Shown here: piece by piece, positions 2,662 to 37,760 of the stretch
Position numbering within the stretch: the stretch's first letter is position 1
Layout of the letters: every line of letters begins with the position of its first letter
Assembly (NCBI GenBank): GCA_947588935.1
Contig: CANQAU010000002.1
Span: forward strand, 1 to 41,878
Direction: 5' to 3'
Source: an uncultured Bacilli bacterium
GTDB taxonomy: Bacteria > Bacillota_I > Bacilli_A > RF39 > UBA660
DNA length: 41,878 nucleotides
Translations under genes and position numbers: made by a program
Notes under the pieces: generated by a model
What the model was told of the DNA's origin: nothing
Databases searched by the model: none
The model's input: only the letters and a program-made list of their open reading frames with translations

Positions 2662-4779
2662 TTCTTTTATGAGCGATAGGTTGACTTTTTCTTTATCGAT
2701 ATCAATTTTGTCGACGTAACATTTTACGATTTGTCCAACGTGAACTACTTCTTTGGGATCTGTAATATATTCTTTACTCATTTTGGAGATATGAATGAGG
2801 CCATCGTTATGAAGTCCAATATCGACAAAGGCACCAAAGGAGGCGACATTTCGAATGGTACCTTCTAATTCCATTCCTTCTTTTAAGTCTTTGATATCTA
2901 AAATATCACTTTTTAACAATACATTGTCTAATTCATCTCGTCGATCTAGTCCGGGATTTTGCAACTCTTCTTTGATATCGTGTAAGGTATAGATATCGAT
3001 TTTTAACTTATCACTCATTTCTGCTTCGTTGATGTTTTTTATTTTTTCTTTAAAGGCTGGTTGATCGATATCTTGTAAATCGAGATTGACTTCTTTTAAT
3101 AGTTGATAAGTGATTGGATAACTTTCTGGATGAATTTTCGTTCGATCGAGGGGATTGGATGAATCTGGAATTCTTAAAAATCCAATGCATTGTTCAAAAA
3201 TTTTACTGGATATTCCGTTTAATTTTTTGATTTCATCACGATTATGAAATGGAATTTTGTTTTTGTATTCCATAATACTGGCAATGGCTTTTTTATTTAA
3301 TCCTGAAATGTAAGATAAAATACTTTCGCTAGCGGTATTAATATTGACGCCAATTTTGTTGACGATTTTTTCCACTGTAAAATCGAGGGCATTGCTTAAA
3401 TTTTTTTGATTTACATCGTGTTGATATTCTCCTACTCCGATGCTTTTGGGATCGATTTTGACGAGTTCTGACAAGGGATCTTGCACTCTTCTACCAATGG
3501 AAATGGCACTCCGTTTTTCGACTGTTAAATCCGGAAATTCAGCAATCGCTAGTTTACTTGCTGAATAAACGCTGGCTCCGGCTTCACTCACGAAACTATA
3601 TTTTACGGGAAGTCCTTTGATTGCTTGGGCTACAAAGGCTTCGCTTTCTCTCGAGGCGGTGCCATTACCTATGGCAATGACGTTCACATGATATTTCGTA
3701 ATGAGATTTCTTAATACTTCACAACTTTTTGCTTTTTCATTTTTTGGTTCATGCGGATAAATGGTAGCAATTTCTAATACTTCTCCAAATTCATTTAATA
3801 CGGCTAGTTTACATCCTGTTCGAAAAGCTGGATCAAAACCTAAAACCACTGCATTTTTAATAGGTTTCGTCATCAATAGATTTTCGAGGTTTTCTTTAAA
3901 GGTTTCAATGGCCATTTCTTCGGCTTCAGTAGTTAAATCGGATCGTATTTCGCGTTCGATGCTTGGAAGAATTAATCTTTTTAAAGCATCTTTTATGGCA
4001 TTGATGACGATGTCTGTGACAAAGGAAGCTGGATTTTTTATGATTTTTTGTTTTAAAAAATCGATGATTTGTTCTTCATCATATTCGAGATGAACCGATA
4101 ATACATTTTCTTTTTCTCCCCGATTTATAGCCAGTGTACGATAGTGTTTCATAGATTTTAAAGGACTTGTAAAATCATAATACATTTCATATACTTTTTT
4201 TTCATCTTTTGCCGATTTTTTCTTTTTACTTTGCAATTGACCATTTTTCCAAATAAACTTACGAATCCATTTTCGATAATAAGCATTATCACTAATCCAT
4301 TCACTGATAATATATCCAGACTTTTCCATTGCAACATCTACTTCGACATTGTAACCACTTGCTAAGGTATTTTTATCTCCAGATATTGGAAAACTCATTA
4401 TTTTTTTGGCTAAAGGTTCTAATCCTAGTGCAATCGCTTCACTGGCTTTGGTTTTCTTATTTTCTTTAAATGGTCGATAAATGTCTTCGACTTCGGCAAG
4501 TTTGGTACAAGAGGCAATCTCTTTTTCTAAGTCTTCGGTTAACAAGCCTTTTTCTTTAATCAGACGCATGACATCTTCTTTTCGTTTTTTTAGATTGGAT
4601 AGATATTCGTATTCTTTTTCAATGGAACGGATTTGTTCTTCATCTAAGTTGTGTGTTGCTTCTTTTCGATAGCGAGCAATAAAGGGAATGGTCGCGCCAC
4701 TCTCTAATAAATTTTTAACACTGATTACTTGTTCTTTGGTAATATTTAAATTTTTGGCTAATTCGAGTTCAATATCCAT
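2659..4779 (-). CDS. tex: Tex-like transcription accessory protein (YqgF/HhH/S1 domains)
   Basis: 706 aa. N-terminal IPFIARYRKEAT motif, central RuvC/YqgF-like GFDPAFRTGCKLAV, and a C-terminal S1 domain (GMELEGTIRNVASFGAFVDIGLHNDGLIHISKMS). SD GAGGAGGAAAAAAC lies before the ATG. Confidence 0.92.
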   Translation of the reverse strand: MDIELELAKNLNITKEQVISVKNLLESGATIPFIARYRKEATHNLDEEQIRSIEKEYEYLSNLKKRKEDVMRLIKEKGLLTEDLEKEIASCTKLAEVEDIYRPFKENKKTKASEAIALGLEPLAKKIMSFPISGDKNTLASGYNVEVDVAMEKSGYIISEWISDNAYYRKWIRKFIWKNGQLQSKKKKSAKDEKKVYEMYYDFTSPLKSMKHYRTLAINRGEKENVLSVHLEYDEEQIIDFLKQKIIKNPASFVTDIVINAIKDALKRLILPSIEREIRSDLTTEAEEMAIETFKENLENLLMTKPIKNAVVLGFDPAFRTGCKLAVLNEFGEVLEIATIYPHEPKNEKAKSCEVLRNLITKYHVNVIAIGNGTASRESEAFVAQAIKGLPVKYSFVSEAGASVYSASKLAIAEFPDLTVEKRSAISIGRRVQDPLSELVKIDPKSIGVGEYQHDVNQKNLSNALDFTVEKIVNKIGVNINTASESILSYISGLNKKAIASIMEYKNKIPFHNRDEIKKLNGISSKIFEQCIGFLRIPDSSNPLDRTKIHPESYPITYQLLKEVNLDLQDIDQPAFKEKIKNINEAEMSDKLKIDIYTLHDIKEELQNPGLDRRDELDNVLLKSDILDIKDLKEGMELEGTIRNVASFGAFVDIGLHNDGLIHISKMSKEYITDPKEVVHVGQIVKCYVDKIDIDKEKVNLSLIKE

Positions 4780-28097: not shown

Positions 28098-28130
28098 AAA
28101 AAAGTCCGAACTTTGTTAGTTCGGTTTTTT
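28098..28130. terminator. bidirectional intrinsic terminator between tRNA-Cys and the convergent ABC gene
   Basis: ccgaact (28106-28112) - ttgtt - agttcgg (28118-28124), with an A-run on the left and a T-run on the right. Confidence 0.75.
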
Positions 28131-32238: not shown

Positions 32239-33396
32239 TTAATCTTCTTTTATAAAAATCATGTTATGGTAATTAAAATTCCATTCAAAATAACTTAATA
32301 CTGGTACTTCTCCTTGTTGTTCTGAATAGGCGTAAAGCGTATCTCCAGCTAGATAATAGACTTTATCTTCTATGGTGTATACAATCTCTTTAATCTCTTT
32401 GGTACTAATTAACTTTTTGTTCTCACTATTTTGATAAGTAACATAGAGTCCTTGGGAAATTTGATACGTATATTTTCTCTCATCGGAAAATTGGTGTGTT
32501 TCATTTACTAATTCATTCATCTGGATATTTTCCCATTTTCCATTATTCCAAATTTTGCCATCTTTTTTATTGGTACCAATTTTGGTCATTTTTTTCTTTT
32601 TGGGATTTATTTCCCATTCGATATTATTTTTTTTATCCACGTAATACACTGCGTTTTTATGAACTCCAAGGTTATACCCATCATGATACAATGTGTCTTT
32701 AAATTCCCAGGTGGTGAGTTTATCATCCTTGGTATTTAATAAATACAATTTATTGAGATAAAAATCTGCGTGATAATCTGGGATGATGATATAATCATTG
32801 GCTTTGATGACATTGGATATGTCATACACATCTTCTTCAAATAAAGGGATGGTTTTGGTTTCTTTTTTATTGATTTTATAAAACCCTTTATAATTCCAGA
32901 CATAATATGTTACATCATCGATGTTTTTGATATCAATTCGTTCATACGTATTGGTTTGGGCATTGACGGTGGTTAATAAAGCCTCGTCAAAGTGTTCTTT
33001 CATTTTTTCTGGGACTAAGTGGTAGTCTACTTGTGTTCCATTCATAAAGCATTGTGGATATATTTTTTGATTTTCCAGTGTTGGGATGATGCAGTGAGTA
33101 TTTTCTTCTTCCAGCGTTTCAATGCTTTTGATTCTTTCTTTTTGGGGAGAATATTTTTCGTTTGTTAAAAACACATAAGTCTGATCTTCTTTTTGAATTT
33201 GATAGGTATATGCCTTTAACGCTTTATCATAGATTTCGAGAATTTGGTATTCGTCTCGTTCATATTGTTTTTGATAATCTCTTGGATGAACTATGAGATA
33301 AATGATGAACGTGATGAAGAAAATGAGTATGGCAAGAGCAATGCGTCGTCTTTTTTGTTTGATTTTATTTGGCTTCTTCGTGATTTTGTAGTCCAT
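32239..33396 (-). CDS. hypothetical N-terminally anchored extracytoplasmic protein (Tyr/Asn/Lys-rich)
   Basis: 385 aa. Basic N-terminus plus helix IALAILIFFITFIIYLIV. It overlaps the upstream gene by 32 nt, which suggests translational coupling. Confidence 0.6.
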   Translation of the reverse strand: MDYKITKKPNKIKQKRRRIALAILIFFITFIIYLIVHPRDYQKQYERDEYQILEIYDKALKAYTYQIQKEDQTYVFLTNEKYSPQKERIKSIETLEEENTHCIIPTLENQKIYPQCFMNGTQVDYHLVPEKMKEHFDEALLTTVNAQTNTYERIDIKNIDDVTYYVWNYKGFYKINKKETKTIPLFEEDVYDISNVIKANDYIIIPDYHADFYLNKLYLLNTKDDKLTTWEFKDTLYHDGYNLGVHKNAVYYVDKKNNIEWEINPKKKKMTKIGTNKKDGKIWNNGKWENIQMNELVNETHQFSDERKYTYQISQGLYVTYQNSENKKLISTKEIKEIVYTIEDKVYYLAGDTLYAYSEQQGEVPVLSYFEWNFNYHNMIFIKED

Positions 33397-33817
33397 ATTT
33401 TTTCTTTTCTTCCATCATAAATTCTGTGATATTGGTTTCGATTTCTGGAAGGCTTTTCTTATCTAAATTGGTTAATTCGACGACTTCTTTTACCGTATCA
33501 ATTGTCACTTTTCCCCATAATAATCCTTGATAAACTTCTAAGTCATTAAACAAATCTGGTGTGATTGAAGTTAAAAAATAACCAAATAAAATTCGTTTTT
33601 GGCCAATTAGAATTCTTTTGTTTGTCATGGCCACTACACAAGTCGAAAAAACATCATAGAAAAGGTTATTTTTTTGTCCAACAAATGTGTATTTTACTTT
33701 TTCTCCTGGATTTAAATGACGTTCAATTACTTCTGCATGTTTTTTGATTCTCCACCAACTAACGGTTTTTGGATATTTTGTTTTAAAAAAAATCGCTTGG
33801 TCATAAACTGCTCCCAT
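33365..33817 (-). CDS. bacterial PH-domain-like (YokE-type) protein
   Basis: 150 aa. The pattern LNPGEKVKYTFVGQ...VVAMTNKRILIGQKRILFGYFLTSITPDLFNDLEV...GKVTIDT matches the bPH strand layout. SD AAGGTGA. The family assignment was made by eye only. Confidence 0.55.
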   Translation of the reverse strand: MGAVYDQAIFFKTKYPKTVSWWRIKKHAEVIERHLNPGEKVKYTFVGQKNNLFYDVFSTCVVAMTNKRILIGQKRILFGYFLTSITPDLFNDLEVYQGLLWGKVTIDTVKEVVELTNLDKKSLPEIETNITEFMMEEKKKYGLQNHEEAK

Positions 33818-33837
33818 GTATTCACCTTCTTGTTTTT

Positions 33838-33866
33838 ATTTTATAATTTTTTTTCTCTTAATGCAA
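33838..33866 (-). promoter_or_regulatory. candidate promoter of the 33817->28129 operon
   Basis: Minus strand reads TTGCAT (33861-33866), a 17-nt spacer, then TAAAAT (33838-33843). The context is AT-rich, so specificity is weak. Confidence 0.35.
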
Positions 33867-33932
33867 TGTTTGGTACTTATTTGATTTGAAAGATTTTCGA
33901 ATTCTATTTTGCTTTTCGGGTTTTAAAATCTT

Positions 33933-34133
33933 GTGCATTTCAAAGATATCACTCGTGATACTCACTTTATAAATGATCCATGTTATTTAAATACGTTGCA
34001 AAAAGTAGCAGATGAAATGGAAAAAAATGTTTATGCTATTCATAATGATGGCGCGATGATCTATGATCGTAAGACTGGGGATTTAAAAATATTTGGAAAT
34101 GTGAATACTTTTCTTCCAAAAGAGAGTAAGTAA
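33933..34133 (+). CDS. doubtful 66-aa ORF (GTG start, no SD)
   Basis: It is the only ORF in a 0.75-kb gap. It has a GTG start with no purine-rich SD, and I recognise no family. It may be non-coding or a gene remnant. Confidence 0.25.
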   Translation: MHFKDITRDTHFINDPCYLNTLQKVADEMEKNVYAIHNDGAMIYDRKTGDLKIFGNVNTFLPKESK

Positions 34134-34216
34134 TAAAATTATTCGTTGCGGATTATGATTATATGGATTTTTAATCTGGAATACTTGATAAAAATATCAT
34201 ATAAAAACTAAACGTT

Positions 34217-34225
34217 TGATATAAT
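34217..34225 (+). promoter_or_regulatory. extended -10 promoter (TGaTATAAT) of the small-peptide transcript
   Basis: tgatataat at 34217-34225. The predicted start is near 34232, which is exactly where the 5' complementary segment begins. No good -35 element is present. Confidence 0.5.
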
Positions 34226-34303
34226 GTTCATGGATACATTTGAAATATATCAGATGTTTTCCCTTTCAATTATCAAAAGATAAGAGAAAGGTGGTGGTTC
34301 ATT

Positions 34304-34381
34304 ATGACAAAAAGAGAAGCATCTCTATTTATTATAATCCTACTATTATTCTTCATAGTAATCACCTTACTATTTAGATAA
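34304..34381 (+). CDS. 25-aa hydrophobic peptide MTKREASLFIIILLLFFIVITLLFR (type I toxin-like small membrane peptide)
   Basis: It falls below the ORF-track length cutoff. ATG at 34304 is preceded by AAAGGTGGTGG with 7-8 nt spacing, and TAA is at 34379-34381. The peptide has a charged N-terminus, a single TM-length hydrophobic stretch and a terminal Arg. Confidence 0.5.
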   Translation: MTKREASLFIIILLLFFIVITLLFR

Positions 34382-34429
34382 TAAAAACATCTGATCTCAA
34401 CAATCGTTGATTTCAGATGCACTCCATAA

Positions 34430-34470
34430 GGGATAACATCTGATTCCTACAATCAAATGTATCCTTTTTT
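34430..34470 (+). terminator. intrinsic terminator of the small-peptide transcript
   Basis: gggataacatctgat (34430-34444) - tcctaca - atcaaatgtatcc (34452-34464), with one mismatch and one bulge, followed by tttttt. Confidence 0.65.
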
Positions 34471-34500
34471 ATTTTATTCAAGTTTCCTTGATATATTCAT

Positions 34501-34542
34501 AATAACATAAAAACAACTTTTTTGCAAGTTGTCTTTATGTTA
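34501..34542 (-). terminator. long hairpin / terminator downstream of ssrA
   Basis: ataacataaaaacaactt (34501-34518) - ttttgc - aagttgtctttatgttat (34525-34542), 18 bp with one mismatch. On the minus strand the inner stem is followed by TTTTTATGTTAT. Confidence 0.55.
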
Positions 34543-34583
34543 TACATACTCGAATTATAAATAAGTCCGAGTATCAATCAATC

Positions 34584-34947
34584 TGGTGGAGCAGAGGAGA
34601 GTTGAACTCCTGTCCAAACAATTCTATGATAAAACATCTACAAGTTTAGTGAAAATTAGATCTCATAGTTTTTCAGGCTTTCACACACCTAACCAAACTA
34701 CCAGTTTAATTTGTATTCTTTCAGTTACCTTAAACAAATAACTGAGTATATCTTATATTTATGAACTCTATTATTTCCCTATAAGAAAAAGAAATATAGA
34801 GTGCTTCTACGACCTTAAATTAGGCTGCTACAAAAGCAGGAGAAGCGAAAGAATAACTTTCGTCATTTAAATTTTAATTTGCATTTATAGTATGCCTACT
34901 ACTTGCAGTCTTATCTAGTGATTGCTGTCGAAACCATTTACTGCCCC
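34584..34947 (-). ncRNA. ssrA: tmRNA (transfer-messenger RNA, SsrA), 364 nt
   Basis: The minus strand starts GGGGCAGTAAATGGTTTCGACAGC and ends GGACAGGAGTTCAACTCTCCTCTGCTCCACCA. The acceptor stem GGGGCAG/CTGCTCC carries the G3:U70 Ala identity pair, and the T-arm is GGAG-TTCAACT-CTCC. An internal tag frame reads ...GAC GAA AGT TAT TCT TTC GCT TCT CCT GCT TTT GTA GCA GCC TAA = ...DESYSFASPAFVAA*. Confidence 0.93.
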
Positions 34948-34954
34948 ATGTGCT

Positions 34955-37666
34955 TTATTTTAGCACATCTTCTTCTTTTTGTATAGTTTGCTCCCGTTTT
35001 TTTCTTGGACTTATAATCTTTATATATTGTTTGATTTTGAATTGTTGTTCCATTAAGAGTCTTTGTTTCCAATATTCTAATACTTCTCTTTCGGTATTCT
35101 TGATGAGATAGTGATAGTGTTTACTTTGTTTTAAATATTCATATCCTTTTTGGCTATTTTGAATGATCTCTTCTAAAATATTGGGTATTTGATTTCCAAA
35201 CAATAATAAGTTTTCCGCAAAAATCTGATAAATTTGTTCTTCTTCTACTGAATAAGTGGACGCTAGTTCTTTGGCACTTCTTTGTCTTCTTCTTTCCTTT
35301 ATTAATACGAGCTTTCTTTTCTCCATTGTTAAACTTTCTTTTAATAACTCTTTGAGTGATTCTTCTTTCGTATTTCGTTTTAAATAACTGATGGCATTAT
35401 AATAAATTTTTCTTTCTTCTTCCGTTAACGTATTCCATTCTAACAATGATTTTCCAGCTCTTTTATAAATTACTTGATAATATTGTGGATGAGTGTCTTG
35501 ACAAGCATCGATGAGGCTAACTAATTTTTCGTGACTTACTTTTGGAAATTGGTTTTCAATCGAGAACGTTGGATACAAAATTCTTTTTAGTTTTAATTTT
35601 GCTTGGGAATACCGAATTCCTTCTTGGGTGGTTAATGGATTTCTTTCAATTAGTTTTGGTCCATGACATTGGATGATGATATCATAATCAACTTGATTGA
35701 TGGTTTTTAATTTTTCCACTGCTTTTTTGACTTCTGCAATGGTCTTATCTGGATAATACGAATATAGAGTTTGAGTGGTTGGAATTAAAAATTTTTGAAG
35801 CAGTTTGATTGCTTGGACATATTTTTTTTCATCAACGAGACACCTGTTGTCATCCTCTAGCATTTCACCATTTTTTTGAACTACTATCTCATACAGTTCT
35901 GGTCTTACCCGTTTTAGTCTTTTCATGATTTTGATTCTTTTGGCTTTACTGGTTAGTTGAAAAACTTCTTTTCCATTTATTTGGTCTTTTTCTTTTTTTC
36001 TTTTTGGATTTAAAAGTTGTTTCATTTTCTTAATGGCTTGATGATATAATTCGTCTTCTTGTTGTTCTTTGGATAAATTGTGCCACTCTACCTGCGTCTT
36101 TCCATGTCGTTTGATGAGGATGTCTATATATTGTGGATTTTCTTCTTTTAAAATGTTGAGGGCTTGATTTATTTTTTCTTTGTCATCACATTCGACCATT
36201 TTTTGAAGTGTTCTTTTATTTTTTAAAATCATTCGCATCTGTTTGATGACTTCTTGTAATTTCTTCTTTTCTTCTTTGGTTAACTCTTGGCAATTTATGA
36301 GTGTTTCTGTATAAGCTTTTTGAATGATTTCATAAGCTGGTGGATCGGATTTTAGGACGTTTACTAAATGATCAACGGTTGACTTTTCTTCGCCTTCAAA
36401 AAATTCGTAAATCGTTTTATGGCGCAAGGTGGCTTCTTTTCTTTTTTTGACCATTAATTTTCCTTCTTCTACAATGGTCGCAGCGTTTTTTTGGACTTTG
36501 ATGATCATCTGTCTTAATTTTTTTATCGCATCTTCATATGTTTTTGTTTCTTCTTTGGATAATTGATGCCATTCTAATAGAGATTGTCCATGACATTTGA
36601 TGATGATTTGGTAAAACATTGGATATTCATATTGAAAGGTTTCAAATACTTTTCGGACGGTTGTATTTTCCGTTTTGAAAAATCGATGATATAAGGTATA
36701 TTTTTCTTTTCGTTGTTCTTTTAGATATTGTAACCAATTTTGACCGTCAATGAAAATATCTAAGAGATTGGTTTGTTCATCATATGGAACTATGCCTAAA
36801 AATTGGAGCATTCTTCCATATTGTTCTCCTTCTTTTTTGGATAAAATTTCTAATTCTTTTTGAATCATATCTTCTGTAAAATCAATTGAATGATATACTT
36901 TTTTTTGTAAATATTTTAAAGCATTTTCTGGATACATGGTGGTGGTTATGCGAATGAGTTCCTGACTAAATTCAAAGTTACTTTTGTACATTCTTTTTAA
37001 CATAAAGTAATATCTTTTTGCCCAGTCCATACGTTTTTCGATTTCTTGATATTCTTCGGTATTGGGACTGGTACTTTTTTGAAGTATTTGTTTTTCTTCT
37101 AGTGTAAAGGTACACATGATGCTTTGAAAAACGAGCAGCCAATCTTTATATTTTTGAGCAGTATACTTTTCAAAAAAAGTAACTTCTTTTTTTGGAGGAG
37201 TGAACGAACTTTTCTTTTTTGGTTCTTCTTTTTTCACTCTTTGATCTAGTAAATATTTGCGATACATTTTTTCCAATTGGGTATCGATGCCAATGTCTTT
37301 TGGACGATTTATATATAAAAAGGTGGCAATTCGGATAAAAACTATTCGATCTTTTTCATTTTCTTCTTTATGAAAGTCGCGCATGATGTTGTGATATAAA
37401 TTTTCTCTTGGCAAGATGATTTTTTTATATGTTTTTGAATCCGGATTTTCGAAAATGGTTTTGATGTAGCATTCTACAACATAGCCAATGACAAATTTTT
37501 CTTGTTCTTCTTCGGTTTTGGTAATGAGTTGTTTTCCATATTGTTTTAAAAGATGTTTTGTCATTCTTTCTTTGACGGGATCTGCGATTTTTATGCGATT
37601 TAGTTGTTCGTTATTTAATCTTTCGAAAACACTTTGAATTTTTGCTTGTAGTTGTTCTGTGTTCAT
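34955..37666 (-). CDS. large cytoplasmic protein with tandem sigma-70 region-4-like helix-turn-helix modules
   Basis: Start moved to the ATG at 37666 (MNTEQLQ...; SD TGGGGGAAAA). The track start is a GTG. No TM or signal peptide. At least 6 modules of approx 65-75 aa of the type T(I/L)Y.(F/Y)F...(15-20)...P.YY.II.K.HG..L.EW..L(S/T).EE...Y..AI.KLK..L. Confidence 0.7.
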   Translation of the reverse strand: MNTEQLQAKIQSVFERLNNEQLNRIKIADPVKERMTKHLLKQYGKQLITKTEEEQEKFVIGYVVECYIKTIFENPDSKTYKKIILPRENLYHNIMRDFHKEENEKDRIVFIRIATFLYINRPKDIGIDTQLEKMYRKYLLDQRVKKEEPKKKSSFTPPKKEVTFFEKYTAQKYKDWLLVFQSIMCTFTLEEKQILQKSTSPNTEEYQEIEKRMDWAKRYYFMLKRMYKSNFEFSQELIRITTTMYPENALKYLQKKVYHSIDFTEDMIQKELEILSKKEGEQYGRMLQFLGIVPYDEQTNLLDIFIDGQNWLQYLKEQRKEKYTLYHRFFKTENTTVRKVFETFQYEYPMFYQIIIKCHGQSLLEWHQLSKEETKTYEDAIKKLRQMIIKVQKNAATIVEEGKLMVKKRKEATLRHKTIYEFFEGEEKSTVDHLVNVLKSDPPAYEIIQKAYTETLINCQELTKEEKKKLQEVIKQMRMILKNKRTLQKMVECDDKEKINQALNILKEENPQYIDILIKRHGKTQVEWHNLSKEQQEDELYHQAIKKMKQLLNPKRKKEKDQINGKEVFQLTSKAKRIKIMKRLKRVRPELYEIVVQKNGEMLEDDNRCLVDEKKYVQAIKLLQKFLIPTTQTLYSYYPDKTIAEVKKAVEKLKTINQVDYDIIIQCHGPKLIERNPLTTQEGIRYSQAKLKLKRILYPTFSIENQFPKVSHEKLVSLIDACQDTHPQYYQVIYKRAGKSLLEWNTLTEEERKIYYNAISYLKRNTKEESLKELLKESLTMEKRKLVLIKERRRQRSAKELASTYSVEEEQIYQIFAENLLLFGNQIPNILEEIIQNSQKGYEYLKQSKHYHYLIKNTEREVLEYWKQRLLMEQQFKIKQYIKIISPRKKREQTIQKEEDVLK
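35375..36700 (-). repeat. six tandem protein-level repeats (approx 65-75 aa each) inside the 903-aa gene
   Basis: Module cores: MFYQIIIKCHGQSLLEWHQLSKEETKTYEDAIKKLRQMI; AYEIIQKAYTETLINCQELTKEEKKKLQEVIKQMRMIL; QYIDILIKRHGKTQVEWHNLSKEQQEDELYHQAIKKMKQLL; ELYEIVVQKNGEMLEDDNRCLVDEKKYVQAIKLLQKFL; DYDIIIQCHGPKLIERNPLTTQEGIRYSQAKLKLKRIL; QYYQVIYKRAGKSLLEWNTLTEEERKIYYNAISYLKRN. Confidence 0.75.
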
Positions 37667-37760
37667 TTGCTTTTCCCCCAACACTCAAATTTGAATTTAT
37701 TATAACACTTTTTTTCTTTTTTCTTACTCTTTTTTCTTTCAATGGTATGGGTTGTTTCAT

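Follow-up and report, generated by a model that had tools for sequence, protein, structure and literature searches.

A probable new family of type I toxin-antitoxin-like modules in uncultured Bacilli, predicted to combine a 5'-3' clamped toxin mRNA with a convergent antisense RNA

Introduction

In the toxin mRNAs of the hok and aapA type I systems, the 5' and 3' ends engage in a long-distance interaction and metastable structures are formed (PMC6733600). Processing of the hok mRNA at its 3' end is cited in PMC8594479, which also covers the Gram-positive organization, in which the antisense RNA is convergent to the toxin gene and overlaps with its 3' end. The ibs/sib, ldr/rdl and zor/orz loci occur as tandem duplicates in intergenic regions, were missed by gene callers and encode peptides in which a basic N-terminus precedes a hydrophobic core (Fozo et al. 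2010; PMC2887945). Type I systems are thought to be narrow in range, in part because they are hard to find (PMC12390103, PMC5367252). Here, we address a locus on contig CANQAU010000002.1 (GenBank assembly GCA_947588935.1) of an uncultured Bacilli bacterium; the whole stretch of DNA that was analyzed, 41,878 nucleotides, is subsequently designated the window. At positions 34217-34470, next to the gene ssrA for transfer-messenger RNA (tmRNA), an earlier note had proposed a type I toxin-like module, i.e. a short mRNA for a hydrophobic peptide of 25 amino acids (aa), whose 5' end is complementary to its 3' end.

The comparisons described below support this type I toxin-like interpretation of the predicted gene, and we consider it likely that the region belongs to a new family of type I toxin-antitoxin-like modules, of which it represents one copy. 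Tandem duplication and the occurrence of pseudogenized copies fit type I loci and speak for this reading.

Results

Both ends of the predicted toxin mRNA are complementary

The sequence elements listed in the earlier note were all found in the window (Table 1): an extended -10 box, an open reading frame (ORF) for 25 aa preceded by a Shine-Dalgarno (SD) sequence 6 nt upstream of the ATG, two segments at the 5' end with complementary segments at the 3' end, and a further copy of one of these segments behind the stop codon (34384-34395), where a local hairpin (34388-34401/34406-34419) can form. When nucleotides 34232-34472 were folded as RNA, a free energy of -79.6 kcal/mol was obtained, as compared to -37.1 +/- 3.8 kcal/mol for dinucleotide-shuffled sequences (z = -11.2), and none of 200 shuffles was as good. 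In the minimum free energy (MFE) structure, the molecule is closed by exactly the proposed terminal helices of 12 bp and 10 bp, and the first 27 nt of the predicted mRNA pair with its last 37 nt. Likewise, an inverted-repeat finder returned arms at 34249-34265 and 34428-34444 (17 nt, 94% complementary) as well as arms covering 34232-34243 and 34453-34464. We refer to the pairing of the first 5' segment as helix H1 and to that of the second as H2. The copy at 34384-34395 is complementary to 34249-34260 at 12/12 positions and offers an alternative partner for the second segment (H2'). The sequence AACATCTGAT or its complement occurs three times in the window, while 0.17 occurrences are expected and none of 100 shuffles reached three. 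The complementary elements are confirmed as an observation, far beyond chance.

A family of related modules

A synteny sample was composed of 80 loci around homologues of the neighboring bPH-domain gene in species-representative genomes, which all belong to uncultured gut Bacilli, some of them being labeled Mycoplasma, Tenericutes or Erysipelotrichaceae in their records. One locus (L001) carries a close copy with 85% identity to the window, in which a 1-nt indel fuses the peptide to the upstream frame, resulting in an ORF of 44 aa. Employed as protein query, this ORF led to a miscalled ORF of 73 aa (P0001) and thereby to a third copy (L081), which resides in a different context beside fmt with no tRNA gene nearby. 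Homology begins exactly at the -10 box, continues for approximately 75 nt beyond the U-run and stops near position 34545. A longer query detected a diverged tandem copy in L001 and further copies in L080 and L063. Among the 80 loci, complete modules are present only in L001 (two copies) and L080, and remnants in L063 and L068; therefore, the bPH gene is not linked to the module.

The copies have the block CCTTTTTTATT-TAT-CAAGTTTCCTTGA in common. Scanning of metagenome contigs for the pattern TTATTNTATNCAAGTTTCCTTGA yielded at least 120 loci, and the family statistics reported here are drawn from loci among the matches listed and from the copies described above, the sources being gut and rumen metagenomes and genomes of uncultured Bacilli. 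These sets contain at least 140 occurrences of the block and at least 116 distinct related modules, at least 92 of which possess an intact SD sequence and a transmembrane ORF. A profile of the family matches the window once, at 34232-34470. Blastn searches with 34200-34480 and 34380-34560 against phage and plasmid collections returned chance fragments or nothing, and an origin from phages or plasmids was rejected for lack of a real match in those collections. Matches of the pattern in viral contigs (L082-L088, L209-L216), which are without ORF and fold, were discarded as chance.

In L001 and L081, the -10 box of the toxin promoter is kept although the sequence 5' of it diverges. A -10 box with at least 5/6 matches is located 4-9 nt ahead of the first paired base in 77 of 81 distinct modules, and in nearly every module pairing starts 6-8 nt past a TATAAT-like box, i.e. 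at the expected transcription start. Across the modules, both arms of the 3' terminator hairpin engage approximately 28-30 nt of the leader. Cognate 5'/3' duplexes have a mean energy of -34.2 kcal/mol, as compared to -20.8 kcal/mol when 5' and 3' parts are combined across helix classes (permutation z = -19.4).

Covariation and strand bias of the 5'-3' clamp

To assess covariation, 63 family transcripts were aligned by plain MAFFT, i.e. without fitting the alignment to a structure, and a consensus was derived with RNAalifold. The consensus recovers H1 (12 pairs), H2 (6 pairs), a short anti-SD helix and the post-stop hairpin, with compensatory changes in 24 of the 29 predicted pairs. Helix cells are paired in 94.6% of cases, as opposed to 82.6% in shuffles and 35-46% when the partners are slid against each other, and 291 cells carry double changes versus 72 in shuffles, a value attained by none of 500 shuffles. 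H1 shows changes on both sides in 10/12 pairs and is paired in 96.9% of cells; for H2, 98.9% of cells are paired and 5/6 pairs are compensatory. Within the subfamily of the window, the H1 arms differ by compensatory double changes, being GGATACATTTGA/TCAAATGTATCC in the window, GGATACGTTTGA/TCAAACGTATCC in L118 and GGATATGTTTGA/TCAAACATATCC in L161, which corresponds to CA/TG, CG/CG and TG/CA, respectively. These same-subfamily relatives keep the 25-aa ORF; the conservation of the complementary segments along with the peptide speaks strongly for the interpretation in the earlier note.

In the long-range helices, G.U pairs outnumber A.C mismatches by 104 to 13, which argues that selection acts on the plus-strand RNA and excludes an inverted repeat that is maintained purely at the DNA level. 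In agreement, 84 of 89 modules form the stronger 5'-3' duplex on the plus strand (p = 1.5e-14). Judged by these substitutions, the 5'-3' clamp is genuine and operates at the level of the plus-strand RNA. The alternative helix H2' is paired in 90.4% of cells, with 79 double-change cells versus 20 in shuffles and 61 G.U versus 12 A.C combinations. Between the window and L001, a T-to-C exchange at 34257 is compensated by an A-to-G exchange at 34387, while the terminator arm is the same. Since H2' covaries, the mRNA contains a conserved choice of partners for the second 5' segment, and selection for H2', as read from the alignment, implies a folding switch.

The clamp does not cover the Shine-Dalgarno sequence

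The earlier note had referred to long-range 5'-3' pairing that keeps the mRNAs of type I toxins translationally inert. For the present clamp, this receives no support from thermodynamic predictions, in which the clamp itself leaves the SD uncovered: it uses nucleotides 1-34 of the transcript, while the SD is located at nucleotides 56-66. In the MFE structure of the window, positions 34290-34297 of the SD pair with 34339-34346 inside the ORF instead. The partition-function calculation predicts the SD to be paired to approximately 78%, and the mean unpaired probability from SD through AUG is 0.21 for the window and 0.22 for the family in every modeled state. A role of the clamp as controller of SD access was therefore rejected, and translational inertness is not attributable to the clamp in these models.

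The peptide is conserved as a predicted membrane helix

The ORF sits at a constant position in the modules behind a strong SD (GGAGG or GGTGG). Of 108 full-length modules, 92 (85%) retain an intact SD and a transmembrane ORF, together specifying 69 distinct peptides. These are 23-36 aa long and follow the pattern M-x-K-[KR]-[DEx]-hydrophobic core-[K/R], their C-termini usually consisting of K, KK or R only. Examples from the subfamilies are MTKREFSLFIIILLLFLVVIILLLK, MHKKDFLILALILIIFLLIALLFTLVI, MKKKDLLISFLILIIILLIVSLMILCIKK, MKKRNFVIKVLRYITIILFLLIIMIVVIKK and MRKSEKYLCSIIILLIIVILIILIKIVPTV. In the 80 distinct ORF sequences encoding these 69 peptides, 35.5%, 18.0% and 46.5% of the differences fall on codon positions 1, 2 and 3, respectively, and 1571 of the differing codons are synonymous. 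In the hydrophobic part, the second codon position is occupied by T in 1236 of 1485 cases. By codon statistics, this substitution pattern is that of a translated membrane helix. Comparison of nine peptides with Pfam-A and NCBIfam gave no match near the cut-offs, and neither the bPH protein nor two overlapping spurious ORFs yielded a record in exact-protein look-ups.

Approximately 15% of the modules are devoid of the start codon, the SD or the frame of the toxin, while the 3' untranslated region (UTR) and the antisense region are kept (L068 at 3468-3603, L063 at 1175-1295, L113, L129, L144 at 877, L098 and L094). These copies may be orphan antitoxins or simply be decaying.

A predicted antisense RNA converges on the toxin 3' UTR

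No convincing antisense promoter had been recognized previously. One is nevertheless present on the minus strand at 34527-34499, consisting of TTGCAA, a 17-nt spacer and TATTAT with an upstream TG. Among 78 distinct modules, the TG is found in all 78, a -10 box with at least 5/6 matches in 66 and a -35 box with at least 4/6 matches at a distance of 16-18 nt in 71; in 24/78 the -35 box is exactly TTGACA. The predicted antisense RNA, folded with a length of 114 nt, reaches -37.5 kcal/mol (z = -6.6) and forms three stem-loops (SL1 to SL3), SL2 being complementary to the terminator hairpin of the toxin mRNA and SL3 preceding a U-run that reads UUUUUAU on the minus strand. The predicted overlap with the toxin mRNA amounts to approximately 91 nt (34382-34472), is perfectly complementary and is confined to the 3' UTR and the stop codon.

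The substitutions also distinguish the strands in this region. All 8 pairs of the post-stop hairpin are compensatory; the minus strand gives its more stable version in 55 modules, as opposed to 31 modules for the plus strand (p = 2e-6). A minus-strand U-run follows this hairpin in the 13 modules listed. For the 3'-terminal hairpin corresponding to SL2, the minus-strand version is the more stable one in 73 of 89 modules (p = 6e-12). In the local 3' hairpin of the mRNA, A.C combinations prevail over G.U (96 versus 33) on the plus strand, and those A.C combinations are G.U pairs on the minus strand. At two positions of this hairpin, where C faces A in 31 of 63 sequences each, the 5' leader offers G for the C and U for the A. 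The opposite biases indicate that the clamp is formed in the plus-strand RNA and the hairpin in the minus-strand RNA. On this reading of the substitutions, one DNA sequence encodes a solid antisense stem-loop and, on the other strand, a weakened mRNA hairpin that yields to the clamp, and the strand-specific G.U biases are strong, though indirect, evidence for functional RNAs from both strands. An antisense RNA gene with its own promoter and terminator is thus predictable from the sequence.

A scan of positions 33000-36000 with Rfam returned only the tmRNA above threshold, and the Sok and IsoA RNA families remained without a hit at E values as high as 10. The sole near-hit of an RNA family in the region, ctRNA_pND324, a counter-transcript RNA of plasmids, covers 34489-34576 on the minus strand, spanning the hairpin of the antisense promoter and the hairpin proximal to the tmRNA gene; with 32.4 bits versus a gathering score of 45 and E = 0.03, it is probably due to chance. 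Pairing in trans of the antisense 5' domain with the ribosome-binding site of the toxin was dismissed, as the duplex energy of -8.2 kcal/mol gave no signal over -7.5 kcal/mol in shuffles.

Table 1. Coordinates of the predicted features in the window. Transcript ends were placed by promoter and terminator signals only.
Feature	Positions	Strand	Remarks
Toxin promoter, extended -10 TGATATAAT	34217-34225	+	Read from the sequence
Predicted toxin mRNA, ~240 nt	34232-34470	+	Start deduced from the -10 box; 3' end within the U-run
5' segment 1 GGATACATTTGA	34232-34243	+	Partner 34453-34464 (helix H1)
Second 5' arm of the earlier note ATCAGATGTT	34249-34258	+	Present
5' segment 2 ATCAGATGTTTTCCCTT	34249-34265	+	Partners 34428-34444 (H2) or 34384-34395 (alternative H2')
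Shine-Dalgarno sequence AAAGGTGGTGG	34287-34297	+	6 nt upstream of the ATG; predicted to be mostly base-paired
ORF for the 25-aa peptide MTKREASLFIIILLLFFIVITLLFR	34304-34381	+	Basic N-terminus, one transmembrane helix, C-terminal Arg
3' arms AACATCTGAT and TCAAATGTATCC, then T-run	34435-34444, 34453-34464, 34465-34470	+	Present
Toxin mRNA 3' end	34428-34470	+	Segment-2 partner 34428-34444, loop 34445-34452, segment-1 partner 34453-34464, U-run 34465-34470
Predicted antisense RNA, ~111 nt	34382-34492	-	Start near 34492; SL1, A-rich linker, SL2, SL3 and U-run
Antisense promoter: -35 TTGCAA (34527-34522), 17-nt spacer, extended -10 TGt + TATTAT (34507-34499)	34499-34527	-	Promoter scan
SL1 UCAAG-GAAA-CUUGA	34478-34491	-	Part of the antisense RNA
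Post-stop hairpin (SL3), predicted antisense terminator	34388-34419	-	U-run is the reverse complement of 34381-34387; 5' arm is the third copy of the earlier note
Spacer to the tmRNA gene	34502-34573		Hairpin 34502-34519/34526-34543 bearing the antisense -35; terminator-like hairpin TACTCG...CGAGTA at 34547-34573
tmRNA gene ssrA	34584-34947	-	ARAGORN; Rfam RF00023, 120.5 bits; convergent with the toxin gene, co-oriented with the antisense RNA

As an alternative to the clamp, nucleotides 34428-34470 of the toxin mRNA can fold locally into a terminator hairpin.

Modules recur at the 3' ends of tRNA and tmRNA genes

The proximity of the locus to ssrA, as given in the earlier note, was verified, and it turned out to be one case of a wider pattern. 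Downstream sequence of 200 nt or more is available for 101 distinct modules. In 23 of these, the 3' end of a tRNA or tmRNA gene lies 65-161 nt past the block, the gene being in all 23 cases convergent with the toxin gene and in the same orientation as the antisense RNA. The genes concerned encode Leu, Ala, Lys, Arg, Thr, Glu, Cys and Met tRNAs and three tmRNAs, including that of the window. This set consists of the window (34479-34584), L089, L095, L107, L109, L110, L113, L114, L119, L125, L135, L139, L143, L144, L147, L152, L161, L172, L182, L191, L198, L200 and L063. The frequency is roughly 100-fold above that of random placement. Many modules have no tRNA gene nearby, and six (L127, L206, L097, L145, L105, L157) abut only a short tRNA 3' fragment (TGGTGCGAGTGACG...). 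Such fragments look like the remnant of an integration site.

The terminator hairpin of the tRNA or tmRNA gene in the spacer reads ACTCGAA...TTCGAGT and is also found 3' of the tmRNA gene in L077 and L078, which carry no module. Very similar hairpins with the core (A)CTCGAAC/GTTCGAG(T) or CCGAAC/GTTCGG follow tRNA and tmRNA genes of the lineage (window 34547-34573 and 28098-28126; L063, L068, L077, L078). The similarity holds across genes and genomes, with or without a module, and the shared terminator sequence could have served as a recombination substrate through which modules spread. An island inserted at ssrA and flanked by an att repeat was rejected, as a search allowing up to 3 mismatches detected no second tmRNA 3' end in the window.

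Modules occur singly or in tandem, the spacing of tandem copies being 351-360 nt in 10 cases and 415 and 480 nt once each. Several divergent copies can be present per contig, and presence varies among close relatives. Many contigs start or end in or beside the conserved block (L001 ends inside it), which is how assemblers behave at multi-copy repeats and suggests that a genome contains several modules.

In L063 and L068, 3' remnants of modules lie beside the tmRNA gene. L063 (545-1071, minus strand) and the equivalent region of L080 encode a type II pair of a YoeB/ParE-like protein (E = 5.9e-10) and a Phd/YefM protein (E = 2.8e-14), and in L063 this pair flanks the decayed remnant. The region downstream of ssrA appears to be a hotspot for toxin-antitoxin systems. 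Between the bPH gene and the module, the window contains an ORF of 66 aa with a GTG start (33933-34133, plus strand) that has no Pfam or NCBIfam match. At the corresponding interval L001 has approximately 3.4 kb including an ORF of 237 aa with no Pfam match. The differing content shows that this interval is variable between close relatives. Directly upstream of the tmRNA gene, an ORF of 909 aa (34955-37684, minus strand) is present, which has no significant Pfam match and includes at least five internal repeats of approximately 75 aa with the motif [IV]I.K.HG..L.EW..L[ST].EE...Y..AI..L+.

Discussion

In the mechanism that we propose, an extended -10 promoter recognized by sigma-A would drive synthesis of an mRNA of approximately 240 nt for the 25-aa single-pass membrane peptide. 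Both arms of the terminator hairpin at the 3' end of this mRNA find their complement in its first ~30 nt, and the completed transcript is therefore expected to close into the 5'-3' clamp formed by H1 and H2, while the SD would be occluded through local pairing. A convergent promoter just past the toxin terminator would give rise to an antisense RNA of approximately 111 nt, ending at the hairpin right behind the toxin stop codon. This RNA would pair with the toxin 3' UTR, probably starting from complementary loops, i.e. SL2 and SL3 on one side and the terminator and post-stop loops on the other. Degradation of the mRNA by a duplex-specific activity would follow and the peptide would not be made, as in the Gram-positive families with 3' overlap. 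By burying both RNA ends as well as the antisense target, the clamp could maintain a stable pool of inert mRNA, as in hok and aapA, and the 5' leader may act as internal mimic of the antisense SL2 and compete with the antisense RNA. The sequences show that the ORF and the promoter and terminator of either gene are present and conserved; that both RNAs are expressed, that the peptide is toxic and that antisense binding has these consequences is what we infer from them.

Several points weigh against this picture. Only 30 of 81 modules have a recognizable -35 box for the toxin promoter. The predicted SD accessibility stays at 0.22 whether the clamp or the 3' UTR is blocked or the transcript is cut off at the stop codon, and the role assigned to the clamp is borrowed by analogy. 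Most members were retrieved by a pattern within the 5' part of the antisense region, so that ascertainment accounts in part for the universality of that block, and members lacking it, such as L068, are missed. Because the sequences form roughly 6-10 helix classes, independent covariation events are far fewer than the cells counted. Moreover, the hosts are uncultured, and both expression and toxicity are predictions from sequence.

The peptide could also be a non-toxic small membrane protein, for instance a regulator or stabilizer of a membrane complex, that is tuned by a cis-antisense RNA and a structured mRNA and has no relation to toxin-antitoxin systems. Many small hydrophobic bacterial proteins are not toxins. 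The peptides, which mostly end with K, KK or R, are also devoid of the charged or aromatic C-terminal tails of several type I toxins, and the predicted occlusion of the SD is constitutive. We nonetheless regard this explanation as rather unlikely. Tandem duplication, contigs with several divergent copies, patchy presence and pseudogenized ORFs with the antisense part kept are typical of selfish type I modules and uncommon for housekeeping membrane peptides. The modules are also located at toxin-antitoxin-rich spots next to tRNA and tmRNA genes and possess a dedicated, predicted antisense RNA with full complementarity. Still less credit can be given to the view that the plus-strand RNA is mainly a structured regulatory RNA, or an element linked to the 3' trailers of tRNAs and tmRNA, with an ORF that is not translated. 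The extreme stability of the fold, the adjacency to tRNA and tmRNA genes and the UTRs, which differ less between the window and L001 than the ORF does, would suit such an RNA. However, it would neither account for a well-spaced strong SD and intact ORF in 85% of the modules nor for codon position 3 being the most and position 2 the least variable, and many modules are far from any tRNA gene.

Inverted repeats at both ends, multiple copies and varied contexts, often beside tRNA genes, might finally point to a non-coding mobile repeat similar to miniature inverted-repeat transposable elements, with terminal inverted repeats maintained at the DNA level and an incidental ORF. This is highly improbable: repeats kept in DNA predict equal numbers of G.T and A.C combinations, as opposed to the 104 versus 13 counted in the long-range helices, and ORF, SD and length class are preserved over 69 distinct peptides with a coding pattern. 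In addition, the homology is bounded by the -10 box and the second promoter rather than by the inverted repeats, and phage and plasmid collections contain no match.

Returning to the type I-like reading, a more far-reaching version would regard the module as an RNA switch with three partners that faces tRNA and tmRNA genes head-on and couples release of the toxin to transcription of these genes, here ssrA. The leader, as a copy of SL2 of the antitoxin, would compete for the same 3' target; the antisense -35 box is embedded in the hairpin between the module and the tRNA or tmRNA gene; and read-through from that gene would add antisense transcription across the toxin gene. We put this version forward as a speculation with a small chance of being correct. 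If true, it would represent a type I system that senses the activity of tRNA and tmRNA genes, which goes beyond mere residence in a variable region.

Through this family, type I-like systems gain more than 100 loci in uncultured, Mollicutes-like Bacilli from gut and rumen, with both predicted RNAs delimited to a few nucleotides. The layout of the family joins the 3'-overlapping antisense RNA known from Gram-positive bacteria with the end-to-end mRNA clamp known from Gram-negative bacteria, and provides a natural example of one sequence optimized for different folds on its two strands. The strand-specific G.U bias offers a purely computational route to infer that both strands are functional RNAs. 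The recurrent siting downstream of tRNA and tmRNA genes is new.

With hok/Sok of plasmid R1 and enterobacteria and aapA/IsoA of Helicobacter, the module shares a small membrane peptide, a cis-antisense antitoxin, built-in alternative pairings and the conserved pairing of the extreme 5' and 3' ends of the mRNA. In these systems, however, the 3' end supplies the anti-SD sequence, so that the interaction blocks translation, whereas the module clamp comprises the first ~30 nt of the transcript and not the SD. In the modeled folds, the module thus fails the defining feature of hok and aapA, since its long-distance interaction does not hold the SD. Moreover, the hok and aapA antisense RNAs lie within the 5' part of the mRNA, while that of the module overlaps the 3' UTR only; their hosts are Proteobacteria as opposed to low-GC Bacilli, and Pfam, NCBIfam and Rfam revealed no sequence similarity. 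The ibs/sib, ldr/rdl and zor/orz loci resemble the module in their tandem copies (spaced by 351-360 nt in the module) and in the basic N-terminus followed by a hydrophobic core, but they are proteobacterial, their antisense RNAs are 5'-overlapping or divergent, and their sequences are unrelated.

A convergent, 3'-overlapping antisense RNA is shared with TxpA/RatA, BsrG/SR4, BsrE/SR5, YonT, SprG/SprF, SprA1/SprA1as and Fst/RNAII, as are a toxin of less than 40 aa with a single transmembrane helix and a location in variable regions. The module differs from these families in sequence, with no Pfam or NCBIfam match for the nine peptides and no Rfam match for the RNAs, and, unlike Fst or SprA1, it gives no signal for pairing of an antisense 5' domain with the ribosome-binding site. 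A further difference is that the overlap is limited to the 3' UTR and the stop codon and that the 5' leader pairs with both terminator arms. In Fst RNA I, too, an 'upstream helix' sequesters the 5' end, contributing to stability. To our knowledge, pairing of leader and terminator as an internal mimic of SL2 has not been described for the Gram-positive families with 3' overlap. In the literature, we found no such system described in these bacteria, nor type I loci tied to tRNA or tmRNA genes. Taken together, the lack of sequence membership in a described family, the new combination of features and the absence of a previous description make these modules a likely new family of a known, type I kind.

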